IMG/VR virus record: IMGVR_UViG_3300021425_000050
Span: 1-54,498 of that record
Strand: one strand, 5' to 3'
Source of the DNA: a virus
Lineage: Duplodnaviria > Caudoviricetes
DNA length: 54,498 nucleotides
The notes below the pieces were generated by a model. That model did not search any database, had not been told where the DNA came from, and saw only the letters and a list, made by a program, of their open reading frames with translations. The stretch's first letter is position 1. Every line of letters starts with the position of its first letter. This document shows positions 9,590 through 20,784 of the stretch, piece after piece. Made by a program: the position numbers and the translations under genes.

Positions 9590-10000
9590 ATGCCAATAAC
9601 AAACGCATTTAAAATCGCTGAGTTGATTCGTCATATGTCCTATAATAGCACTGATGATGTAATTGAGATAACAAAAGGAACAACCGACTTAAATAGAATA
9701 AAGGGAGATGCAACTTATACCGCAACTACCGAAGTCGCACTTGATACTTTTGCTCACGCATCATTTAGAGCTGCTCGATATATTGTAGCAATGTCTGAGG
9801 GAAGTAATTTCCACTCAACTGAAATCATGATTGTTCATGATGGAAGTGCTGTGACATTAACTCAATATGGTACATTGAAAGATACAACTTTAGCAACTTT
9901 TGACGCTGATATAAGTGGGGATAATGTAAGGCTGTTAGTAACTCCAGCGAGTTCTAACTCTACAGTCGTAAAATTCCAAGGAACACTAATAGACGCTTAA
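9590..10000 (+). CDS. Virion structural protein (single copy of the shared C-terminal beta domain)
   Basis: LDTF...ARY...TEI.IVHDG...TQYG...F.ADI.G.NVRL.VTPAS aligns by eye with the ends of 8753 and 10077. Confidence 0.65.
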   Translation: MPITNAFKIAELIRHMSYNSTDDVIEITKGTTDLNRIKGDATYTATTEVALDTFAHASFRAARYIVAMSEGSNFHSTEIMIVHDGSAVTLTQYGTLKDTTLATFDADISGDNVRLLVTPASSNSTVVKFQGTLIDA

Positions 10001-10020
10001 TTATAAAAAGATATTCTTTT

Positions 10021-10047
10021 AGGGGACTTTCGAGTCCCCTTTTTTTT
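10021..10047 (+). terminator. Rho-independent terminator with UUCG loop
   Basis: AGGGGACT-TTCG-AGTCCCCT followed by a T-run. Confidence 0.9.
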
Positions 10048-10076
10048 AGCACTTTAAAATCGCATAAATAGTTATC

Positions 10077-10910
10077 ATGGCATCAAAAGTAAAATTTTTT
10101 GCAGACTTAGGATTACAATCTGCTCTCAATACCCAAGTCGATGGAGACTTGACTGTTGCTGGTGATTTAACAGTTACAGGTACTACAGTCACAGTTAACT
10201 CGTCAACAACAAGTGTTGAAGACTCAATGCTTGAACTTGCAAATTCGAATACGAGTGCAGATATAATAGACATTGGTATCTACGGAAATTATAATGATGG
10301 TTTATCAGATGGCGGTGCAAGTGAATATACAGGATTATTCAGAGATGCAACTGATTCTACATGGAAATTATTTGAAGGTTTAGAAGTAGAACCTTCTACT
10401 TCTGTTAACACATCAGGTTCAGGATATACTCTTGCAGATTTACAAGTCGGTGACTTGACTGCAACTACAATTACAGCGACTAACTCATTAACTGGCGCTA
10501 GTATGACATATCCAACATCAGACGGAACAAACGGACAAGTATTAACGACAAACGGAAGTGGCGTATTATCATTTCAAGACGCTTCAGGATTAGAAAGTGG
10601 AACAATTACAACAACATCTACCTCAATAACAAATTTAGATACATTTACTGTATCATCTTCAAGGGGTGGAAAATATACAATAACATTGTCAGACTCAACA
10701 TCAGGCGTATATCAGACTACAGAAATACATTTAATACATGATGATTCTTCAAGTTCATTGTCTCAATTCGGTACAGTATTGCAAGGCGGAAGTAACGAAC
10801 TTGCAACATTTTCAACAGATGTGTTAAGCGGAAGTGTCAGACTCAGAGTTACACCAGCATCAACAAATTCAACTAAAATAAGTTTCAAAAAAATACTAAT
10901 AGATGCGTAA
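10077..10910 (+). CDS. Tail fibre-associated protein
   Basis: GDLTVAGDLTVTGTTVTVNS and PTSDGTNGQVL modules plus the shared C-terminal domain. Preceded by CATAAATA at 10063-10070. Confidence 0.7.
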   Translation: MASKVKFFADLGLQSALNTQVDGDLTVAGDLTVTGTTVTVNSSTTSVEDSMLELANSNTSADIIDIGIYGNYNDGLSDGGASEYTGLFRDATDSTWKLFEGLEVEPSTSVNTSGSGYTLADLQVGDLTATTITATNSLTGASMTYPTSDGTNGQVLTTNGSGVLSFQDASGLESGTITTTSTSITNLDTFTVSSSRGGKYTITLSDSTSGVYQTTEIHLIHDDSSSSLSQFGTVLQGGSNELATFSTDVLSGSVRLRVTPASTNSTKISFKKILIDA

Positions 10911-10985
10911 ACACATGTCTTTTAAAGGGACATGATTACTAAATAAAGGTGTTAGTTAACACTAAACTATTAATAGGACACAATA

Positions 10986-11204
10986 ATGGCAACACAAAAC
11001 ACATTTGTAATAGAATATGGGTTAACAGTCGGTTCTACAGAAATCATTACATCAGCAGGAAAACTAGTCGCTAGTGCATTGTCTGAATTAGATACTGATT
11101 CTTTGTCAGAAGGTTCGACTAACCAATATTTCACAACATCAAGATTCAACACATCTTTTGATACGAGACTAGCGAATGCTACAATTGACGGAGGTACTAT
11201 CTAA
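10986..11204 (+). CDS. Miniature fibre-like protein (72 aa)
   Basis: N-terminus paralogous to 11204 (GLTVGSTE.I.S.G), one TDSLSEGSTNQYFT module, ends IDGGTI. SD AGGA. Confidence 0.65.
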   Translation: MATQNTFVIEYGLTVGSTEIITSAGKLVASALSELDTDSLSEGSTNQYFTTSRFNTSFDTRLANATIDGGTI

Positions 11205-13207
11205 TGTCAAGTAAGAATTTCATAATTAAAAATGGTCTTACTGTAGGTTCTACAGAAGTTATCAATTCTTCAGGTATCATTCAACCCGCCGCTGTAAATG
11301 AGGCGATTGATGATAGAGTAGATGCATTACTAACAGCGGGTGCAGGAATATCATTATCATATGATGACTCTGCTGGTACGCTAACAATCACAGGTAATGT
11401 CGGAGATATCACAGGAGTAAACGCTGGTGACGGTCTAACAGGTACTGCAACATCAGGAGATGCAACACTTAATATCGGTGCAGGTAATGGTATTACTGTA
11501 AATGCAGACGATATTGAAGTTAACATGGGTGCATTTAGCACATCAGATTTAACAGAAGGTTCAAACAAATATTATACAGACGAAAGAGTAGACGATAGAG
11601 TTAATGCTTTAATCACAGCGGGTTCAAACATCACAACAACATATGATGATGCCGCTGGTACTTTAACAATCGCTGCTACAGAAGATAACCTTTCAAACAA
11701 CGATACAGACGACCTCTCAGAAGGTTCATCAAACTTATACTATACCGATGCAAGAGCAAGAGCTTCTATATCAGCAAGTGGGGATTTGTCCTATAATTCT
11801 ACAACTGGTGTAATTAGTTTCACAAATGATGCAGGTGATATAGAAAGTGTAGTCGCAGGTTCTGGTTTAACAGGAGGCGGCACATCAGGTGATGTCACAT
11901 TAAATGTTATAGGTGGTGACGGTATCACTGCAAATGCAAATGACATCGCATTATCATCATCAGTTGCTGGTGATGGTCTAGGATACTCATCAGGTGTTTT
12001 ATCAGTCGGTGTAGATGATAGTTCAATCGAAATAGATTCAGATAACTTGCAAGTAAAAGCAGGTGGTATCACAAATGCTATGTTGGCAGGTTCTATCGAC
12101 CAATCTAAACTATCAGGTGGTATTTTAAATTCACAATTAGCAAATAGTTCAGTCACAGTCAATTCAAATACAGTAGCATTAGGTGCTTCTATAACTTTAG
12201 ACACAGGCGACTTTGCAGAAAATGGAAATCTATTTTATACAGACGAAAGAGTTGATGACAGAGTTTCAAACTTACTAACAGCAGGTTCAAATGTTTCATT
12301 GTCATATGATGACGCCGCTGGAACATTGACAATTTCTGCTACAGAAGATAACTTATCAAACAACACAACTTCTGATTTAGCAGAAGGTACAAATCTTTAC
12401 TTCACTAACGCAAGAGCAGATGCTAGAGTTAATGCAGTATTACCTAATACAGATTCATTAAGTGAAGGTTCATCAAATCTATATTTTTCTAATGAAAGAG
12501 TAGATGATAGAGTTAACGCTTTATTGGCAGCAGGTACAGGTATCACATTATCATATGATGACGCCGCTAACACACTAACAATTGGTGGTACTGCTCAATA
12601 TGGAGATTCAGATGCTAGAGATGCAATCTCAGTCACAGATTCAGGTGGCGATGGTTCTCTTGCTTATAACAGTTCAACAGGTGTTATAACTTATACAGGA
12701 CCTAGTTCAAGTGAAGTTAGAGCTCATCTAAGTGCAGGTACTGGTGTATCATATTCAGGTGGTCAATTCAGTATCGGACAGGCAGTTGGCACATCAGACA
12801 ATGTAACCTTTAACAATGCAGTTATATCAGGTGACTTAACAGTTAACGGTTCAACAACAACTGTATCTTCTACAAATACAACAATCGAAGATTCATTATT
12901 AGAATTAGGAACAGGAACTACAGGTTCTCCTTCTAACGATGCTGGTATTGTTATTGAGAGAGGAGATGAGTCTAATGTGTTTATGGGTTGGGACGACAGT
13001 GCAAGTGCATTTATGTTCGCTTCAACAACTGCAACAGGTTCGTCAACAGGTGCTTTATCGTTGACACACGCTGCTGTTAATACAGGTGCTTTAACAATTA
13101 CAAACGCAACAAATAGTGGCGGTACAGCAAGAAATGTGTATCAATCAACTTCTGCTCCAACATCAGGTGATGGTGCAGTTGGTGATTTATGGATTTTATA
13201 CTCTTAA
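11204..13207 (+). CDS. Long tail fibre protein with internal repeats
   Basis: Multiple D..EGS.NLY(Y/F)TD(E/A)R(V/A)DDRV...AG.....YDDAAGTLTI repeats. C-terminal SAPTSGDGAVGDLWI motif. Confidence 0.75.
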   Translation: MSSKNFIIKNGLTVGSTEVINSSGIIQPAAVNEAIDDRVDALLTAGAGISLSYDDSAGTLTITGNVGDITGVNAGDGLTGTATSGDATLNIGAGNGITVNADDIEVNMGAFSTSDLTEGSNKYYTDERVDDRVNALITAGSNITTTYDDAAGTLTIAATEDNLSNNDTDDLSEGSSNLYYTDARARASISASGDLSYNSTTGVISFTNDAGDIESVVAGSGLTGGGTSGDVTLNVIGGDGITANANDIALSSSVAGDGLGYSSGVLSVGVDDSSIEIDSDNLQVKAGGITNAMLAGSIDQSKLSGGILNSQLANSSVTVNSNTVALGASITLDTGDFAENGNLFYTDERVDDRVSNLLTAGSNVSLSYDDAAGTLTISATEDNLSNNTTSDLAEGTNLYFTNARADARVNAVLPNTDSLSEGSSNLYFSNERVDDRVNALLAAGTGITLSYDDAANTLTIGGTAQYGDSDARDAISVTDSGGDGSLAYNSSTGVITYTGPSSSEVRAHLSAGTGVSYSGGQFSIGQAVGTSDNVTFNNAVISGDLTVNGSTTTVSSTNTTIEDSLLELGTGTTGSPSNDAGIVIERGDESNVFMGWDDSASAFMFASTTATGSSTGALSLTHAAVNTGALTITNATNSGGTARNVYQSTSAPTSGDGAVGDLWILYS

Positions 13208-13239
13208 TAAATAGAGTATATACTTTGGGAAAATTATAA

Positions 13240-14859
13240 ATGGCAACAGGCTCACAGAAGGTAAAAACACCCTCAGGTTGGAATTCAACGCAAGGGGCAT
13301 GGGTAAAAACAGGAACATCAACTTGGAAGGCAGTCGACCAAATCTATGTGAAGACACCTTCTGGTTGGAATAATGCTTCTGGTCAAGAATCGGTTCAACA
13401 ACCGTATCCTTACATCGCAAATGCCCAAGAACCTAATATAAGAGATGCTCAACAACCTTATCCTTATATTGCAAATGCCCAAGAACCTAATATCAGAGAT
13501 GCTCAGCAACCTTATCCTTACATTGCGAATGCACAAAGTCCATTTATTAGAAACGGTCAACAACCTGCGATATATCAAAATCCGGTAAATGCACAAAGTC
13601 CATTTATTAGAAATGCTCAAGAACCGAACATAAGGTCAGCACAAGAACCTAATATTAGAAACGCACAAACACCGTTTACATATCAACACAGGTCACCTTT
13701 TACATACAGAGACCCAAGGTCATATAGAAATCCGTTTACATATCAACACAGGTCTCCATTTACATATCGAAACCCTGTAGATTATAGAGTGCCTTCGACT
13801 TATCAACACAGGTCACCTTCTACATATAGAGACCCAAGGTCATACAGAGTACCATTTACATATCAACACAGGTCTCCTTTTACATATAGAGACCCAAGGT
13901 CGTATAGAGTACCATTCACTTATAGTCACAGGTCGCCGTTTACATATCGAAACCCTGTTGGTTATAATATGCCGTTTACATATCAACACAGGTCGCCTTT
14001 CACATATCAGTCTAGACAACCTAACAGTGCAAGACAACCAGTTGCATACAGGTCACCGTTTACATATAGAAACCCTGTATCAGCACAACAACCAGTTGCA
14101 TTTAGGTCACCATTTACATACAGTGCTAGATATCCTGCTAACATTCAACAACCGGTAACATATCAGTCGCCGTTTACATACAGTGCTAGATATCCTGCAA
14201 ACGCTCAACAACCGAATAGTGCTAGACAACCTTTTACATATCAGGCAAGACAACCTGTTTATTTTCCACCCCCTCCAGGTGGCGGTTTCGGTTGTTTCCC
14301 TGCTGGGTCAATGGTCTGGTTGGCAGATGGTTCACATGTTGCTATCGAAACTGTCGAAGTTGGACAAAATGTTTGGACTTGGAACGAAGAACTCAATACA
14401 TTGGAAATCAATGCTGTCGAATACTGTATGAAACCAAGAGTTGTTTCAGTATGGGATATTTACTTATCAGATGGTAGAGTATTACAAACAACAGATGACC
14501 ACCCAATTAAGATTGCAGGTGTCGAAGGTTGGGGTGCTTTAAATCCTGAATTAACTGTAGAAAGACACGAATGGTTGTCAGATGATATGACACATACATT
14601 AGAAGTAGGAACTAGAATATTCACTATGACTGATGCAGTTCTATACGGTAAAGAATCAGAAGAAGTAGTAATAGAAAAAATAGAACAAAATGATGAAATG
14701 GTAGTGTATAACTTATCAGCGATTGCTAATACAGGAACATTCTTTGTTAACGGAGTTTTAGTTCATAACTACTATAACCCAATCACTGGTGAGTATGAAA
14801 ACACACCGAACTTGATGGAAGACAAATTAGACCCTGGTTTCACACCACTACCAAAATAG
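13240..14859 (+). CDS. Pro-punctuated repeat protein (zipper chain A2) with C-terminal Hint/BIL domain
   Basis: N-terminal VKTPSGW / WVK..W / YVKTPSGW motifs, 40 Pro-delimited units (13402-14253), then PPPPGGGFG and a CFPAG...VHN Hint domain. Confidence 0.8.
   Translation: MATGSQKVKTPSGWNSTQGAWVKTGTSTWKAVDQIYVKTPSGWNNASGQESVQQPYPYIANAQEPNIRDAQQPYPYIANAQEPNIRDAQQPYPYIANAQSPFIRNGQQPAIYQNPVNAQSPFIRNAQEPNIRSAQEPNIRNAQTPFTYQHRSPFTYRDPRSYRNPFTYQHRSPFTYRNPVDYRVPSTYQHRSPSTYRDPRSYRVPFTYQHRSPFTYRDPRSYRVPFTYSHRSPFTYRNPVGYNMPFTYQHRSPFTYQSRQPNSARQPVAYRSPFTYRNPVSAQQPVAFRSPFTYSARYPANIQQPVTYQSPFTYSARYPANAQQPNSARQPFTYQARQPVYFPPPPGGGFGCFPAGSMVWLADGSHVAIETVEVGQNVWTWNEELNTLEINAVEYCMKPRVVSVWDIYLSDGRVLQTTDDHPIKIAGVEGWGALNPELTVERHEWLSDDMTHTLEVGTRIFTMTDAVLYGKESEEVVIEKIEQNDEMVVYNLSAIANTGTFFVNGVLVHNYYNPITGEYENTPNLMEDKLDPGFTPLPK
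14293..14769 (+). other. Hint (intein-like/BIL) autoprocessing domain, 159 aa, no homing endonuclease
   Basis: Block A CFPAGSMVWLADG..IETVEVG, block B TTDDHP, block F VYNL and block G FFVNGVLVHN. The +1 residue is Tyr. Confidence 0.9.
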
Positions 14860-14876
14860 GAGTATGAGAGAATAAT

Positions 14877-15809
14877 ATGCCAGATTTTCAATCACCTTAC
14901 ATTGCAAATGGTCAAAACCCATTTACATTTAGGGCCCCATTTACATATAGAGTTCCTTATATTGCGAATGCAAGACAACCAGTTGCATTTAGGTCACCGT
15001 TTACATATAGGGTCCCTTACATCGCTAATGCTCAGCAACCGAATACATACAGGTCACCTTTCACTTACAGAAACCCTGTAAATGCTCAACAACCTGTCAC
15101 ATTCCAATCACCGTTTACATTCCAATCACCTTATATTGCGAATGCTCAAGAACCGAATATCAGGTCAGCACAAACTCCAAGAGGATATCGTGTACCTGTT
15201 TCTGCTCAAGAACCGAATATTAGAAACGCTCAACAACCTGCTGGTTATAGATTACCTGTTAATGCTCAAGAACCGAATATCAGGTCAGCACAACAACCTG
15301 CTGGTTATAGATTGCCTGTTAATGCTCAAGAACCGAATATTAGAAACAGACAAACACCTGCAAAATATCAGAATCCAGTAAACGCTCAGGAACCTAATAT
15401 TAGAAACGCACAACAGCCTGCTGGTTATCAGCATCCTGTTTCTGCTCAACAACCTAATATTAGAGATGCAAGACAACCATCGACTTATCAACATAGGTCT
15501 CCGTTTACTTATAATCATAGGTCTCCATTTACTTATCAACATAGGTCTCCGTCTACATATAGAGACCCTGTAAGTTATAGAGTTCCATTTACATATCAAC
15601 ATAGAAGTCCTTCGACATATGCAACACAAGGTCAGACACCGTTTACATATCAACACAGGTCTCCTTTCACATATGCAAGACAAGGTCAAACACCGTTTAC
15701 CTATCAACATAGAAGTCCGTTTACATATGCAACACAAGGAAGAACACCAGTAATCCGTTGGGATGGTGATTTGAATCAAAATTGGCCAGGTACTCCAGTG
15801 TCGTCATAA
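14877..15809 (+). CDS. Pro-punctuated repeat protein (zipper chain B2, mirror partner of 13240-14859)
   Basis: Almost the whole protein is 40 Pro-delimited units (14895-15746). Confidence 0.8.
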   Translation: MPDFQSPYIANGQNPFTFRAPFTYRVPYIANARQPVAFRSPFTYRVPYIANAQQPNTYRSPFTYRNPVNAQQPVTFQSPFTFQSPYIANAQEPNIRSAQTPRGYRVPVSAQEPNIRNAQQPAGYRLPVNAQEPNIRSAQQPAGYRLPVNAQEPNIRNRQTPAKYQNPVNAQEPNIRNAQQPAGYQHPVSAQQPNIRDARQPSTYQHRSPFTYNHRSPFTYQHRSPSTYRDPVSYRVPFTYQHRSPSTYATQGQTPFTYQHRSPFTYARQGQTPFTYQHRSPFTYATQGRTPVIRWDGDLNQNWPGTPVSS

Positions 15810-15839
15810 ATATAGTTAACTAATAACTATTTTTATATT

Positions 15840-17423
15840 ATGCAACAGATAGACCACGATATTATTTTAAAACTTTTTAGCGAAGACAGAGAAGACTGGA
15901 AAGAAAAACATTTCTATAAACACATCGGTTCGATGAATCTTAGTGAAGATTGGGAACAATCTACAACATGGAAAAATGTTTCATGGTTGTATGAAAATAG
16001 ATTACCTAAACTTAAAAAGGTGACATGGGGTGATGTTTCAAAACTTCAAAAAGAAGGCAAACTCATAGGTTGGAATCAACTACAATCTCAAGCATTCGGT
16101 TATCATTATTTCTTACCTTTAGGTTGGACTGCTAAACCTGAATTTCCAGCACCTGGTAAATCAGGTATGGATTTTATAAACATCAATGGTGAATATGAAA
16201 ATATTTGCAATCATGTAAGATTCGATGATGTAGATTATGAACCTGATGAAGGTAAAAAAGGCAATTTAGATTCAGTTTACTATCATGATGCCAAAGCACA
16301 TTGGTTAGTAGATAGTATTAGAAGAGATGGTCTTTGGAATCCTATTCAAGGTGTTGTAGCACCAGCACATGATGACAAGTATAAACTATCAATACACCCA
16401 GGTTCTGTAAGGTCACCTGTATTCGAATGTTTAGATGATGAATCTTTACAAATGTGGATATGGGATGATTACGATTTATTTGATTGGATACCTGAATATA
16501 CTTTACATACATTACTAACTGATTTATCTAATCACCCAAAAATGGGTCAAAGAGATATGGGTAAAAAGAATGTCTCTTTTGGATATACTCATGGTTATAT
16601 GGAGATATCTACTGAACTACAACAATTAACTTTTAGAAGTGATGTTTATGAATTCAATGAAAGAATTGCAAAAATGGCACAAGGTAAAAGAATAAACATC
16701 TACATTGGATATGATTCTCGTCATAAAGAAATTGCAGAATTAAACGCATGGACAATGTTGAAATCTATTCAACAAGGTTTTGGTGGGGGTGATGTTCATG
16801 GAACAATGAAACATTGGATACCTGAAATCAAATTCTTAGACATATCAAAGATACCAGAATATACTAGAGATTATGCTCAACAATCAACAGAGTTTACATA
16901 CAGTCGTTTCTTAATACCATACTTAGAAAACTACAAAGGGTTTAGTATTTTCTTAGATGATGATATACTTTTTACCAAGAGTATATTACCGATGTTCTAT
17001 TTCTTAAATCCAGATGATGCAGTTGCATGTATCAAATATGACTTTGAAAAACATAACGATACAAAGTTTGACGGTGAAAAGAATGTAAACTATCCTAAAA
17101 AATTATGGTCTTCATTAATGATATTTAATAACGGTCATGAAGATTGTAAGAAACTAACACCAGATGTAGTTAATACACAAACAGGAAAGTATCTACATCA
17201 ATTCGAATGGACAGATAAAATATCAGATATACCTCAACACTATATATTTACAGAAGGCTACGATACAGACGAATCAAGTTGGCGTCCATCTGCTATACAT
17301 TATACAAGAGGTGGTCCATGGATTGACAATATGGATACATCTAATATTGATAAACTTGATGAATACGAAAGATTGTATAATAAGTGGTTGAACTATAAAA
17401 AACAAAATGATATAATGGAGTGA
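15840..17423 (+). CDS. GT-A glycosyltransferase (GT8/CDI-like) fused to an N-terminal ParB/Srx-like region
   Basis: C-terminal half has IYIGYDSR, STEFTYSRFLIPYL, a DxD-type FLDDD, KLWSSLMIFN and HYTRGGPW. N-terminal half has LVDSIRRDGLWNPI...HPGSVR. Confidence 0.7.
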   Translation: MQQIDHDIILKLFSEDREDWKEKHFYKHIGSMNLSEDWEQSTTWKNVSWLYENRLPKLKKVTWGDVSKLQKEGKLIGWNQLQSQAFGYHYFLPLGWTAKPEFPAPGKSGMDFININGEYENICNHVRFDDVDYEPDEGKKGNLDSVYYHDAKAHWLVDSIRRDGLWNPIQGVVAPAHDDKYKLSIHPGSVRSPVFECLDDESLQMWIWDDYDLFDWIPEYTLHTLLTDLSNHPKMGQRDMGKKNVSFGYTHGYMEISTELQQLTFRSDVYEFNERIAKMAQGKRINIYIGYDSRHKEIAELNAWTMLKSIQQGFGGGDVHGTMKHWIPEIKFLDISKIPEYTRDYAQQSTEFTYSRFLIPYLENYKGFSIFLDDDILFTKSILPMFYFLNPDDAVACIKYDFEKHNDTKFDGEKNVNYPKKLWSSLMIFNNGHEDCKKLTPDVVNTQTGKYLHQFEWTDKISDIPQHYIFTEGYDTDESSWRPSAIHYTRGGPWIDNMDTSNIDKLDEYERLYNKWLNYKKQNDIME

Positions 17424-17425
17424 TT

Positions 17426-17977
17426 ATGAATATGTTAATTTATTGTGAGAACGGAAATCTCACTATCAGAAAACCAAACGGACTACAATATACATTTGAG
17501 AATACAGATAAACCTGAATTAGGGTTTCATTATGATGTATTAATCTACGATGATATTGAATGTAAGATTTTAGAATGGGAAGATGACAAACCATTTGAAG
17601 AACAGAAACAAATTGCATTGAATGAAGAAGAGATTGATGCTATCGAATCATATATTGAGAACTCAGTTCCACCTGAAAATGTAAGTCTCAATGGTCAATA
17701 CAGTGAAGACTTGAATAATCAAGCGAAACAGTATATACTAGAAATGTGTAATGCATATGGTTTCGCACACGAAGTTGAAGTTCTAATGGCAGGTCGTGAA
17801 GGTTCAAATCACCCTTACAGGTCAGATGCAAGAAGAGTCATGGAATATGTTGATGCTGTCTGGAATGTATATGTAAATGTGATGAACGAAATAAGACAAA
17901 CAAGGGAAGATACTCTAAAACCTTTTGAAGATTATAGTTCACAAATACCTACGCCTAGAAAAGCACAAACAAACTAA
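17426..17977 (+). CDS. Hypothetical protein, possibly tail-fibre assembly chaperone-like
   Basis: C-terminal YGF...S.HPYRSDARRVMEYVDAVW resembles fibre-assembly-like phage proteins. Start is 17420 (GTG) or 17426 (ATG). Confidence 0.4.
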   Translation: MNMLIYCENGNLTIRKPNGLQYTFENTDKPELGFHYDVLIYDDIECKILEWEDDKPFEEQKQIALNEEEIDAIESYIENSVPPENVSLNGQYSEDLNNQAKQYILEMCNAYGFAHEVEVLMAGREGSNHPYRSDARRVMEYVDAVWNVYVNVMNEIRQTREDTLKPFEDYSSQIPTPRKAQTN

Positions 17978-19222
17978 ATGAGAATTCTTGTAATTGCTAC
18001 CATTAGGTGTGGTGGAACTTATTTCGCCGAGTCAATTGCAAATAATCACAATTTAGATTACATACATGAACCAAAGTTTAAGAACTTAGGTGCAACAAAT
18101 AAAGATAATGTTGTTGTTAAAATTTTAACACATGCACCTTTTACAGACATAAAGAAGATTATCGAATACTCTAAAAACTTTGATAGAGTTTATGTGTTAG
18201 ATAGAAAGGATAAAGAAGAACAATTAAGGTCTGTTTATTCTCTCTATGAATATCCAAAAGAATCTGCTCATAGTAGTTATCATTGGGATGATTCTATGTT
18301 CGAAAAAGAGAACCCTAAAGATACAAAAGAAGAGTATGAATCATGGATAAATAAATTTACTGAACAAGTAAATACAATTGCTTCTATCTTAAATAAAGAT
18401 ATTCTATATTATGAAGACTTGTATTACGGTAAAGTTGAATTAAAAGATATAAAGTTTATGCCAGATACATCTGAAAGATTAAGAAAAGAACCTATAAAGA
18501 TAGAGTATAAAGATAGTCCTTTCAATGTAAAAGACTTACCCTTAGATAGAGTTTATGTATTCGATAATTACTTAGAAAATTCTCTTTGGAAATTTATAGA
18601 TAAACAACTAACTCAATCATCTACATGGGCGAAAACAAATCAAGTAAATTCACAACATAAGACAGGTTTACCTCATCATAGTTTTTGGGGAACATCTATT
18701 CTAAGAGCAGATGAACATGGTAATGGATACTTAGATTATGATGCAGGTTGGACTGAATCATCAGGTGCATTGTTTAGATGGTTCAATAGAAGAATATGCA
18801 CCGACTTTGGGTTTAAATGGAAAAGATTTCAGTATATGGGTACGAATAGTCAAACCCAAGGACTAGAAGGCACAACTCATGCAGATTGCCAAAAAGATGA
18901 TGAATGGAATCTATCATTTCTATATTATTACAATAGTTATTGGAATGAAGAATGGGGTGGTGATTTAAGATTCTATGATGATGTTCCACAACATGGTCGT
19001 ATGGGTCGTGAAGAACATATAAAGAATCATCAAATCGGAAGTGTTGAGTTTGTTCCGAATAGACTTATAATGTTTGACGGTAGAATACCCCATGGTGCAG
19101 ATGCCCCTAATAGTAAAGCAAGATATATGGACAGAAGGTCTATTGTATTGAGAGGAGATGAAGTTCAACTAGTAGACGAGGAGGAAATGTTTAATGCCAA
19201 CGATAGATTTTACAACATTTAA
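17978..19222 (+). CDS. Sulfotransferase-like N-domain fused to 2OG-Fe(II) oxygenase
   Basis: N-terminus has ILVIATIRCGGTY...HEP...YYED (RSG(T/S)T/HEP-like). C-terminus has HxD (THAD), WGGDLRFY, PNRLIMFDGRIPH and a distal R. Confidence 0.65.
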   Translation: MRILVIATIRCGGTYFAESIANNHNLDYIHEPKFKNLGATNKDNVVVKILTHAPFTDIKKIIEYSKNFDRVYVLDRKDKEEQLRSVYSLYEYPKESAHSSYHWDDSMFEKENPKDTKEEYESWINKFTEQVNTIASILNKDILYYEDLYYGKVELKDIKFMPDTSERLRKEPIKIEYKDSPFNVKDLPLDRVYVFDNYLENSLWKFIDKQLTQSSTWAKTNQVNSQHKTGLPHHSFWGTSILRADEHGNGYLDYDAGWTESSGALFRWFNRRICTDFGFKWKRFQYMGTNSQTQGLEGTTHADCQKDDEWNLSFLYYYNSYWNEEWGGDLRFYDDVPQHGRMGREEHIKNHQIGSVEFVPNRLIMFDGRIPHGADAPNSKARYMDRRSIVLRGDEVQLVDEEEMFNANDRFYNI

Positions 19223-20114
19223 TGAAGACTCGTTAAGAGATTTCAAACCTGTTTTAGCAAAGACATATGCACCTGATTGGTGGAAATCAGCGAAGGTTTG
19301 GAACACTGTTAGAGGTCGTCACATACAAACAATTCGTGCCTGCCCAGCTATGGACGATTGGTTGAAGTCTGGTTGGTATATACTTGCAAATAGAGACATG
19401 GAAGTATGTTTTGGTTCAAGTAAAGATGATAAGAATAGTAAGATATCTTTTACACAGGACCCCGAATGGGATTATCAAAAAAGAAGAAGAAAAGGTCTGC
19501 CAGAAGAAGGTGAAGGCCCAAATACATCTGGTTATCCTGTATATCATTCACCATCTCACCCAGCAGAACAATTCTATCATTCATTCAAATACTTACCTGA
19601 TGAAGAATCACCTGTAAGAGATGCATTCAAAATGAGAAGTGCTTGGAATATCAAAACGCCACCAGGTTATTCGTGTTTTTATCTTGACCCATTTTTATTT
19701 CAGAACGAACACTTTGCTGTGTGGCAAGGTATAATTGATACAGACTCATTCAACACTAACTATGACAATTCTCAAATCATTCTCTATCCAAGACATAGTA
19801 AAGATTTCATAATTAAAAAAGGAACACCTTTAGTTCAGATTATACCTTATAAAAGAGAAAATTGGGTTGCAACATATCAATGTATGACCGAAGAAAGTTG
19901 GCAGACTAGTCGTAGTCACATTACAAATGAACATAAAAATTTAACAATGGATGAATGGGGTAGAACAAAATATGATATGTCAATGGAAAGAGTAAACCCA
20001 ACATTAGGTCCATACAGAAACGAAGGTTATTGGCAAGAAAAAGGTAAGATGTTTAAAGAAGATGGACCGCCACCTGAATGTCCATTTCACAAAGGGGGAG
20101 AAGATGACAGTTAA
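19194..20114 (+). CDS. Conserved phage hypothetical protein (DUF6065-like) found in oxygenase clusters
   Basis: TIRACPAM.D....GW, W.IKTPPGYS, GIIDTD and IKKGTPLVQIIP motifs. Confidence 0.55.
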   Translation: MPTIDFTTFNEDSLRDFKPVLAKTYAPDWWKSAKVWNTVRGRHIQTIRACPAMDDWLKSGWYILANRDMEVCFGSSKDDKNSKISFTQDPEWDYQKRRRKGLPEEGEGPNTSGYPVYHSPSHPAEQFYHSFKYLPDEESPVRDAFKMRSAWNIKTPPGYSCFYLDPFLFQNEHFAVWQGIIDTDSFNTNYDNSQIILYPRHSKDFIIKKGTPLVQIIPYKRENWVATYQCMTEESWQTSRSHITNEHKNLTMDEWGRTKYDMSMERVNPTLGPYRNEGYWQEKGKMFKEDGPPPECPFHKGGEDDS

Positions 20115-20784
20115 AAAATTATTTCCAACATATGTCTTCGAATGGGATTTTCTAGGAGAAGATAGCAACGAGTTGATGACACCTGAATATTTTAGATTGC
20201 TTAGAGAAGAAATGGACGCTATGAGAAGAAGAGACCCTGTAGGTCGTAGTGTGTCAAATGCTTATACAGGTTGGCAATCAAACGATAGAGTTGATGATAA
20301 TCCTATCTTTCAAAAATGTATTAGACAAATTAAGAAAAAGGTCAGAGAAGAGATTGGTCCAACATTGGGCATGAAGAACACAACAGTCAATTTTCACAAT
20401 GCTTGGGCAAACATTAATGATAATTTGGCATGGAACAAACCACATTTACACAATGGTTGTATGTATTCAGGCGCTTTTTATATACAAGGCGATGGTGATG
20501 AAGGTCATTTTATAGCAATAGATACTGATTATAAGTTTGTTGGAAATGTTCCTAGAAGTCAATCTGTTGTTAGAGAATCTTATAGTATTGCACCTAAAAC
20601 AGGTTTTTTAATAATGTTTCCGAGTGGTCTAATGCATATGGTCGAACCAAATCCTACTCAGAAAGATAGATATAGTATTTCATTCAATTTAGACTTTGAT
20701 GGTGATAGAAGCGAAGAAAATAATAACTCCAGTTTATCATATAAAATCAAAGACAAATACGGTAATCTTGCAATTAACGAGTAA
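20104..20784 (+). CDS. 2OG-Fe(II) oxygenase (TIGR02466-like)
   Basis: WANIN...NKPHLH...SGAFYI...FPSGLMHMVEPN...RYSISFN. ATG 20104 follows the SD-like GGGGGAG. Confidence 0.8.
   Translation: MTVKKLFPTYVFEWDFLGEDSNELMTPEYFRLLREEMDAMRRRDPVGRSVSNAYTGWQSNDRVDDNPIFQKCIRQIKKKVREEIGPTLGMKNTTVNFHNAWANINDNLAWNKPHLHNGCMYSGAFYIQGDGDEGHFIAIDTDYKFVGNVPRSQSVVRESYSIAPKTGFLIMFPSGLMHMVEPNPTQKDRYSISFNLDFDGDRSEENNNSSLSYKIKDKYGNLAINE

Follow-up and report, generated by a model that had tools for sequence, protein, structure and literature searches.

Hint (Hedgehog/intein) domains of the bacterial intein-like (BIL) type have been described in secreted proteins of bacteria and in ubiquitin-like loci of ciliates. 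Type A BILs end in His-Asn and have no nucleophile at the +1 position; cleavage is their predominant reaction, and attack of a free amine on the thioester at the N-terminal junction can lead to ligation or splicing (PMC4031507). In BIL2 of Tetrahymena the C-terminus of the N-extein is transferred to Lys amines of other proteins through an isopeptide bond (PMC8616854, section 2.4). Here we describe a domain of this kind near the C-terminus of a putative phage fibre protein, A2, encoded in the IMG/VR virus record IMGVR_UViG_3300021425_000050 (Duplodnaviria; Caudoviricetes). The stretch analysed, termed the window, comprises all 54,498 nucleotides (nt) of this record and is by estimate about 30% complete. 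The explanation that we consider best, with a probability of roughly 0.55, is that the source is an uncultured marine T4-like myovirus, that A2 and the product of the following gene, B2, are the two chains of an antiparallel repeat fibre, and that a type-A-BIL-like insert in the Gly-rich tip of A2 excises itself.

The HINT domain of Streptomyces UmbC1 has been modelled at the tip of a stalk (bioRxiv 10.1101/2023.12.09.570830). A BIL-type Hint on a phage fibre was not found in our literature search; the Hint, tail-fibre and phage matches that were examined concern terminase inteins. For a domain whose kind is already known, the phage fibre is a new setting.

The Hint domain and its catalytic residues

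Three Hint-clan Pfam models align to one stretch of A2, all slightly below their curated cut-offs (Hint, 27.7 against 29.7 bits; Intein_splicing, 26.0 against 35.8; Vint, 23.0 against 27). The structure predicted for this stretch by AlphaFold2 (AF2) from a 32-row alignment has a mean predicted local distance difference test score (pLDDT) of 87.3 and a predicted template modelling score (pTM) of 0.84. When it was compared by Foldseek with structures in the Protein Data Bank (PDB), 59 matches were obtained at E ≤ 1e-3, and the Hint fold is present in 45 of 45 among the matches listed. Ranks 1–5 are occupied by BIL2 of Tetrahymena thermophila BUBL1 (6tmm and 6y75; E 1.3e-9 to 9e-9) and the BIL of Clostridium thermocellum 2lwy (E 5e-9; TM 0.85 by target). 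The TM scores by target are 0.82–0.85 for these top BIL matches; mini-inteins come next and Hedgehog appears at rank 24. A family profile gives E values of 8.7e-23 for BIL2, 1e-17 for 2lwy, 1.7e-16 for 8w20 (which, we presume, may be UmbC1), 8.7e-11 for the best intein and 6e-4 for Hedgehog. The two rankings agree in placing BILs ahead of inteins, with Hedgehog behind. On the evidence of the model, residues 352–510 of A2 are a genuine domain of the Hint superfamily.

A terminal His-Asn and the lack of Cys, Ser or Thr at +1 define a type A BIL in PMC4031507, and an N-terminal Cys or Ser nucleophile with a block-B TxxH also belongs to the type; by its residues, and by its closeness to 2lwy, the A2 domain fits this pattern. 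The first-pass annotation of this DNA had named a 159-aa Hint domain from Cys352 to Asn510, with a TxxH, a terminal His-Asn and then Tyr. All of these are borne out by the translation, in which TDDH occupies 418–421, VHN 508–510 and Tyr511 the +1 position. Its description of Tyr followed by a 29-aa tail needs correction, since the 29 aa (residues 511–539) include Tyr511. The premise from which it started, that BIL-like Hints can cleave at their termini and that an external nucleophile can resolve the thioester, is right as judged from PMC4031507 and PMC8616854.

The Hint-bearing architecture was recovered in 31 loci by two scans of the viral contigs in IMG/VR; three additional matches, L035–L037, were left out as giant-virus RNA polymerase inteins. 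The 20 distinct fibre Hints used to assess conservation share pairwise identities of 29–97%, with a median of 58%. Gly at −1, Cys1, Phe2, the block-B His and the His-Asn pair are invariant (20/20), and the block-B Thr is present in 19, with Ser in the remaining one. The +1 residue is Phe in 13, Gly in four, Tyr in two and Met in one, and is Cys, Ser or Thr in none. An independent set was assembled by looking up the N-terminal domain of A in a collection of 5.8 billion proteins, which returned 58 proteins of 296–944 aa. The Hint is present in 51 of these, every one of which keeps Gly at −1, Cys1 and His-Asn; at +1, Ser occurs in a single database relative (P0151). A catalytic set that is invariant in both collections (20/20 and 51/51) is hard to explain without catalysis. 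In the database gene call of P0061 the open reading frame (ORF) passes the Hint, enters B-like repeats and then runs out of frame, which is likely to be a frameshift or an assembly error.

Beyond the fibres, a phmmer search with the Hint detected 1825 relatives at E ≤ 1e-3 among 1.84 billion representative proteins. From 145 of the best 150 proteins 267 full-length domains were taken, partial domains among the 336 matches being left out. Cys comes first in 265 of the 267 and His-Asn last in 236; Lys occupies +1 in 146 of them, and just 25 have Cys, Ser or Thr there. Two to seven Hint domains in tandem are present in 85 of the 145 proteins (for example P0002, P0003, P0004, P0008 and P0010–P0013). 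Their linkers are 1–3 residues long, as in HN-K-G-G-C, and some of these proteins derive from metagenome-assembled genomes of Nanoarchaeota and Moranbacteria.

A megablast search with positions 10000–18000 of the window produced no match among 50,697 phage records, and tblastn of A2 against the phage collection gave only a low-complexity match in a Ruminococcus phage. The same search with the Hint matched 14 phage records, 11 over the full length under helicase-type or unnamed genes and three partially under other genes; the A2-type architecture is therefore absent from the cultured phages of that collection. A word-indexed search with the Hint region found one protein. In BFVD, some uncultured-phage proteins carry the automatic name 'Hint domain containing protein' and one protein named 'Collagen triple helix repeat' matches the Hint model. 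Hint domains on fibrous phage proteins thus exist in databases, uncharacterised.

Besides the fold, the domain in A2 shares with type A BILs Cys1, the block-B TxxH, the C-terminal His-Asn and the absence of Cys, Ser or Thr at +1. Like them, it is a mini domain without a homing endonuclease. Tyr occurs at +1 in a Magnetospirillum BIL as well (PMC4031507). The differences lie in the carrier, which is a phage virion fibre chain rather than a bacterial secreted protein, and in a C-extein of just 5–29 aa in the fibre loci, in which Lys is always present. BIL2 resembles the A2 domain in having Gly residues directly before residue 1 and a C-terminal NHNFFANGxLxH(N) motif that aligns. Its C-extein Lys is the nucleophile described in PMC8616854; the tails of the A2 family carry Lys too, where a similar role may be supposed. 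In contrast to the ubiquitin-like flanks of BIL2 in a eukaryote, A2 has a 351-aa repeat-fibre N-extein and a short-peptide C-extein, and no ubiquitin-like Pfam match was found in that N-extein, a Pro/Tyr/Arg/Gln repeat tract. The two domains are 18% identical in the structural alignment, and any conjugation by A2 would be likened to that of BIL2 by analogy.

Class 1 mini-inteins (Ssp DnaB and gp41-1) have the same fold and the same residues in blocks A, B, F and G. The A2 domain differs from them in lacking a +1 nucleophile, in its weaker profile similarity to inteins (8.7e-11 or worse) and in not being inserted at a conserved site of an essential enzyme. Hedgehog (Hog) also has a C-terminal Hint, with a thioester that frees the N-terminal part and is resolved by an external nucleophile. 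In the A2 family, however, His-Asn is invariant, and in A2 itself the Hint is followed only by a 29-aa disordered tail, with no sterol-recognition region; the relationship is remote by fold and by profile. As in pretoxin-HINT proteins, a long extended protein carries the domain close to its C-terminus, but there is no toxin domain downstream, the tail comprising 29 aa in A2 and 4–15 aa in the database set. The Pfam PT-HINT model matched 22 of 32 family members and not A2. Peptidase S74 domains are self-cleaving C-terminal intramolecular chaperones of phage fibres and spikes. A fibre C-terminal domain that removes itself may be a functional analogue of these, although the fold and chemistry are unrelated and A2 gave no S74 Pfam match.

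The turn of the A/B pair and its variants

The architecture of A2, in which an N-terminal domain, a repeat tract and a Gly-rich end precede the Hint and tail, is common to 17 distinct related loci. The repeat tract and Gly-rich end run out as ...PVYFPPPPGGGFG, with Gly351 as the last residue. In all 17 distinct complete Hint-bearing loci a B-type gene starts −1 to +48 nt after A. Joining of A2 and B2 by read-through or frameshift was rejected on account of this spacing and of frames that differ among the loci.

The pairing of the two repeat tracts was assessed with motifs of EPNI type ([EQS]PN[IV]) and of HRSP type (H[RQ][STN]P), chosen from the window sequence. A register was defined by i + j = S and the test covered the 17 distinct complete loci, five 5′-truncated A genes and exact duplicates being left out. 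In every locus a single antiparallel register sets each motif class in A against the other class in B. In the window this register matches 40 of 40 labelled A residues, against 24 for the second-best register and 24 for the best parallel offset; in L013 all 104 labelled B residues are matched, the corresponding scores being 52 and 48. Subtracting the B length from S gives 35 in 15 loci and 37 in two, which places the C-end of B opposite A residue 35–37, and the N-terminal domain of A2 would adjoin the B2 C-terminus. At the other end, the part of A that precedes the Hint overhangs B residue 1 by 3–14 residues, and this overhang is the Gly run. In the window B2 residue 1 is opposite A2 residue 344, leaving an overhang of 7 aa. 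The pre-Hint length of A follows the length of B with r = 0.9995 and a slope of 1.00, the difference being 37–48 for B lengths of 222–562.

Should the two chains pair physically, as their mirrored motifs and matching lengths would suggest, the Hint would sit at the turn, next to the B2 N-terminus. This geometry had been proposed in the first-pass annotation and gains support from the comparison, with its single register in 17/17 loci. By these sequence criteria A2 and B2 appear to form an antiparallel fibre of two chains. Their repeat blocks, some of 18-residue period (AQEPNIRD plus AQQPYPYIAN in A; PFTYQHRS plus PFTYATQGQT in B) and others of 20-residue period, are mirrored; they span 13384–14271 and 14877–15746 in the window and are found in loci L002–L034.

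The repeats are nearly free of Lys in an AT-rich genome. Summed over the 17 loci, A has 14 Lys to 704 Arg and B has 29 to 595, and the Lys-poor spans of the window are 13384–14292 and 14877–15746. The repeats of relatives that have no Hint are also depleted, so we rejected avoidance of the thioester as a reading of this bias.

Such relatives are numerous. The N-terminal domain of A was found in 176 viral loci, 80 of which were kept; the Hint is present in 21 of the 80 and absent from 59. In those Hint-less loci for which B and the motifs were scorable, B remains a separate gene and the register is unchanged (S less the B length, 35). In 'short' forms A stops at the Gly run and a few further residues, for example ...GGGGNFCEP, or ...GSPGFGTGFNPLTK in L076. 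The difference in length between A and B is 41–46 in eight of the nine short forms scored (89 in L116), compared with a pre-Hint difference of 37–48 in Hint-bearing loci. S less the B length is 35 in eight of nine, the best register of L072 being off, and A extends 7–12 aa past B residue 1 in eight of nine, L116 having an overhang of 55. In 'domain' forms (L039, L042, L052, L059, L060, L063, L074, L105 and others) a C-terminal globular domain of about 145 aa lies at the turn in place of the Hint. Here A extends 144–151 aa past B residue 1 in the seven forms that are motif-scorable; the other nine distinct forms lack the motifs, and for them the length difference between A and B (176–196) alone agrees. 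The domain forms have a small ORF of 86–100 aa between A and B, and the two products are possibly a tip domain with its chaperone. Taken together, the short and domain forms mark the turn, as far as such comparisons go, as a variable tip. The Hint is placed exactly between the Gly run and the tail, and the end of the tail in the window, PGFTPLPK, resembles the C-end TGFNPLTK of the Hint-less L076.

Fusion of the two chains was not seen: none of the A ORFs in the 80 loci and none of the 58 database proteins carries a B-type C-end. The B chain starts with MP in 18, MA in two, MV in one and MS in one of 22 loci with the Hint, and with MA in 16, MP in 12 and MV in two of 30 without. There is no Hint-specific signature at the B N-terminus, the second residue being small in both groups.

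A FastTree phylogeny of 110 Hint domains, the 20 fibre Hints and the 90 best-scoring others, places all fibre Hints in one clade (support 0.904). The conserved downstream gene was analysed with IQ-TREE using 42 distinct rows of 68 matches, loci without the gene being left out. On this tree the Hint label changes three times, at least two of the changes being forced, and the main Hint clade comprises 10 rows with support of 100/97. The single Hint clade and the main clade of the downstream gene together indicate that the association of Hint and fibre is old and mostly vertical, with no recent invasion. Recent mobile insertion was rejected on these grounds.

Possible fates of the predicted Gly351 thioester

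We favour self-excision of the Hint, which is flanked by the Gly-rich end of A2 on one side and by a short tail containing Lys on the other. After translation Cys352 would attack the carbonyl of Gly351 in an N–S acyl shift to form a thioester, and cyclization of Asn510 would sever the Hint from the tail. The thioester would be resolved in cis, either by water, such that A2 ends at Gly351, or by an amine of its own tail. The candidates for the latter are the α-amine of Tyr511, as in type A BIL splicing, and the ε-amine of Lys539, in a BIL2-like manner. The Hint would then be gone and the mature fibre tip would be like that of many Hint-less relatives. Resolution is probably by water or by the Lys-bearing tail.

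The tail itself suggests these candidates. Residues 521–539 of A2 have a pLDDT below 50 in the AF2 model and are predicted to be disordered. Lys is the last or second-last residue in all 19 distinct tails of the loci. In the database set it holds one of these two positions in 46 of 51 proteins, and each of the 33 distinct tails contains Lys. Outside the fibres, in the wider family, Lys occupies +1 in 145 of 228 His-Asn domains and occurs within +1 to +3 in 155, against 48 within −3 to −1; 39 of 42 short terminal tails contain Lys and 14 consist of K alone. The conserved tail Lys and the Lys isopeptide of BIL2 make a cis Lys, or the tail α-amine, a plausible nucleophile for the thioester. We considered whether the tail Lys is a by-product of the ribosome-binding site of B and rejected this, since the residue is kept in loci with spacers of 40–48 nt.

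Several points weigh against self-excision. The occurrence of processing is read from the conserved residues and from nothing else. A purely tolerated insert poorly explains why the fibre Hints form a single clade (0.904) or why the Hint has been retained through deep divergence (the 10 rows of the 100/97 clade of the neighbouring gene), and this pattern of retention could equally go with a positive function. The domains of about 145 aa at the same site in relatives could mean that the tip is a functional slot. The closest characterized relative, BIL2, conjugates to other proteins (PMC8616854), and the likeness between the tails of Hint-bearing and Hint-less forms extends to short motifs only.

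In another reading the Gly351 thioester is passed to an amine outside the tail, which would make the Hint an ATP-independent ligase of the BIL2 kind at the tip of the virion fibre. We hold this reading as a whole to be unlikely. Such a ligase might close an A2–B2 hairpin at the B2 N-terminus or attach the tip covalently to a further virion protein, to a tip protein with a gene of its own or to the host surface. Conjugation to a nucleophile on one of these third parties would be in keeping with BIL2, the nearest solved relative by profile and by fold, which has several substrates (PMC8616854), with the Gly run directly ahead of Cys1 and with the other tip domains and the small extra ORF at the same site in relatives. 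Nevertheless, no candidate acceptor was found, the tail always offers a cis Lys, Hint-less relatives do without such a bond and type A BILs chiefly cleave (PMC4031507), and we consider third-party conjugation quite unlikely. Closure of the hairpin would require that the N-terminal amine of B2 attack the thioester, with the Gly run as the loop. The register, which brings B residue 1 opposite A residue 344 and leaves the Gly-rich overhang, suits this geometry; BIL thioesters are known to be attacked by amines (PMC4031507) and the nearly Lys-free repeats would leave few competing amines nearby. Against this, gene fusion would yield the same product, yet it occurs in none of the loci or database proteins, and A and B stay separate in the Hint-less relatives, which are Lys-depleted too. 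There is no Hint-specific signature at the B N-terminus, where most chains would begin with Pro, a secondary amine, after removal of Met, and an amine of the A2 tail is better placed, a cis Lys being present in every tail. Ligation of A2 to B2 is chemically possible and geometrically apt but is not favoured, and we rate it as very unlikely.

A different role would be that of a removable assembly clamp, in which the Hint holds the A2 end and the B2 start together, fixing the antiparallel register or nucleating the fold, and then hydrolyses off. The start of the Hint 3–14 residues past B residue 1 in 17/17 loci, the close spacing of the A and B genes and the preservation of long-diverged Hints with intact catalytic residues would all fit. 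However, 59 of the 80 related loci build the A/B pair without a Hint, in the same register where this can be scored, which by comparison weighs against an essential chaperone role. Binding of the Hint to B is nowhere indicated in the present results, and simple N-terminal hydrolysis needs neither the conserved terminal Asn nor the tail Lys, so a clamp too seems improbable. Alternatively, the Hint may stay in place uncleaved as a structural or binding knob. Other globular domains occupy this position in relatives and the Hint is predicted to fold as a compact domain, but full conservation of Gly at −1, Cys1, the block-B His and His-Asn would be hard to account for in a protein without catalysis, and we regard an unprocessed knob as highly improbable. 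Self-excision is the reading that we prefer.

Locus features and implications

The coordinates of A2, B2 and their elements are collected in Table 1.

Table 1. Features of the A2–B2 locus in window coordinates.
Feature	Position	Strand	Details and basis
Gene A2, 539 aa	13240–14859	+	N-terminal domain, repeat tract, Gly-rich end, Hint and tail; ORF list, translation
A2 N-terminal domain, residues 1–48, MATGSQKVKTPSGWN...	13240–13383	+	83–97% identity across the 80 kept loci
A2 repeat tract, residues 49–344	13384–14271	+	Pro/Tyr/Arg/Gln-rich; EPNI-type block, HRSP-type block and a third block, in this order
Gly-rich overhang PPGGGFG, residues 345–351, the 'turn'	14272–14292	+	Gly351 is the −1 residue of the Hint
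Hint domain, BIL type, Cys352–Asn510, 159 aa	14293–14769	+	AF2, Foldseek, profile
Cys352 codon	14293–14295	+	Cys1, predicted thioester nucleophile
Block B, T418-D-D-H421	14491–14502	+	
His509-Asn510	14764–14769	+	Block G, preceded by Val508; Asn predicted to cyclize
Tail (micro C-extein), Tyr511–Lys539, 29 aa, ...DPGFTPLPK	14770–14856	+	Lys539 codon 14854–14856
AGGAG, likely B2 ribosome-binding site	14858–14862	+	Overlaps A2 stop codon 14857–14859; read from sequence
Gene B2, partner chain, 310 aa, MPDFQSP...TPVIRWDGDLNQNWPGTPVSS	14877–15809	+	ORF list

The stop codon of A2 and the start of B2 are separated by a 17-nt spacer. The span 14254–14894, which covers the region of main interest, corresponds to A2 residues 339–539, the stop, this spacer and the first six codons of B2 (MPDFQS). 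Comparison with PHROGs identifies in the window a structural module of a T4-like myovirus that includes sheath, portal, major head protein, terminase and neck proteins. In its major capsid protein the window shares about 64% identity with Methylophilales phage Melnitz and Pelagibacter phage HTVC008M.

A2 and B2 are situated inside a run of fibre-like genes. Upstream, at 11204–13207, the module contains a further fibre-like gene, for a 667-aa protein in which ...YTDERVDDRVNAL... units recur and for which phrog_697 (structural protein) is a match at E 1.2e-52. B2 (14877–15806) scores above the Pfam cut-off for Cementoin, a transglutaminase-substrate hexapeptide repeat (28.7 bits against 27), a match that is probably compositional. 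Just downstream, at 15840–17423, 17978–19222 and 20062–20784, are genes for a weakly GT8-like protein and two 2-oxoglutarate-Fe(II) (2OG-Fe(II)) oxygenases (PF13640 and PF13759). The GT8-like match is below threshold, and the PHROG family of that protein has no known function; PF13640 we take to be a family that includes prolyl hydroxylases. These three proteins might modify the fibre, which is rich in Pro.

Among abundant marine myoviruses related to pelagiphages, no fewer than 20 distinct forms of the fibre keep the Hint with its catalytic residues intact. If self-excision is all that occurs, A2 and its relatives would be a clear example from nature of proteins whose flexible end tolerates a BIL. 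If instead the C-terminal Gly of the fibre is transferred to another amine, this would be a new way of forming covalent bonds in, or from, a virion. The tail Lys is also a feature of the wider family, which numbers about 1800 representatives, and offers a testable clue to how the thioester is resolved in this Hint subfamily.

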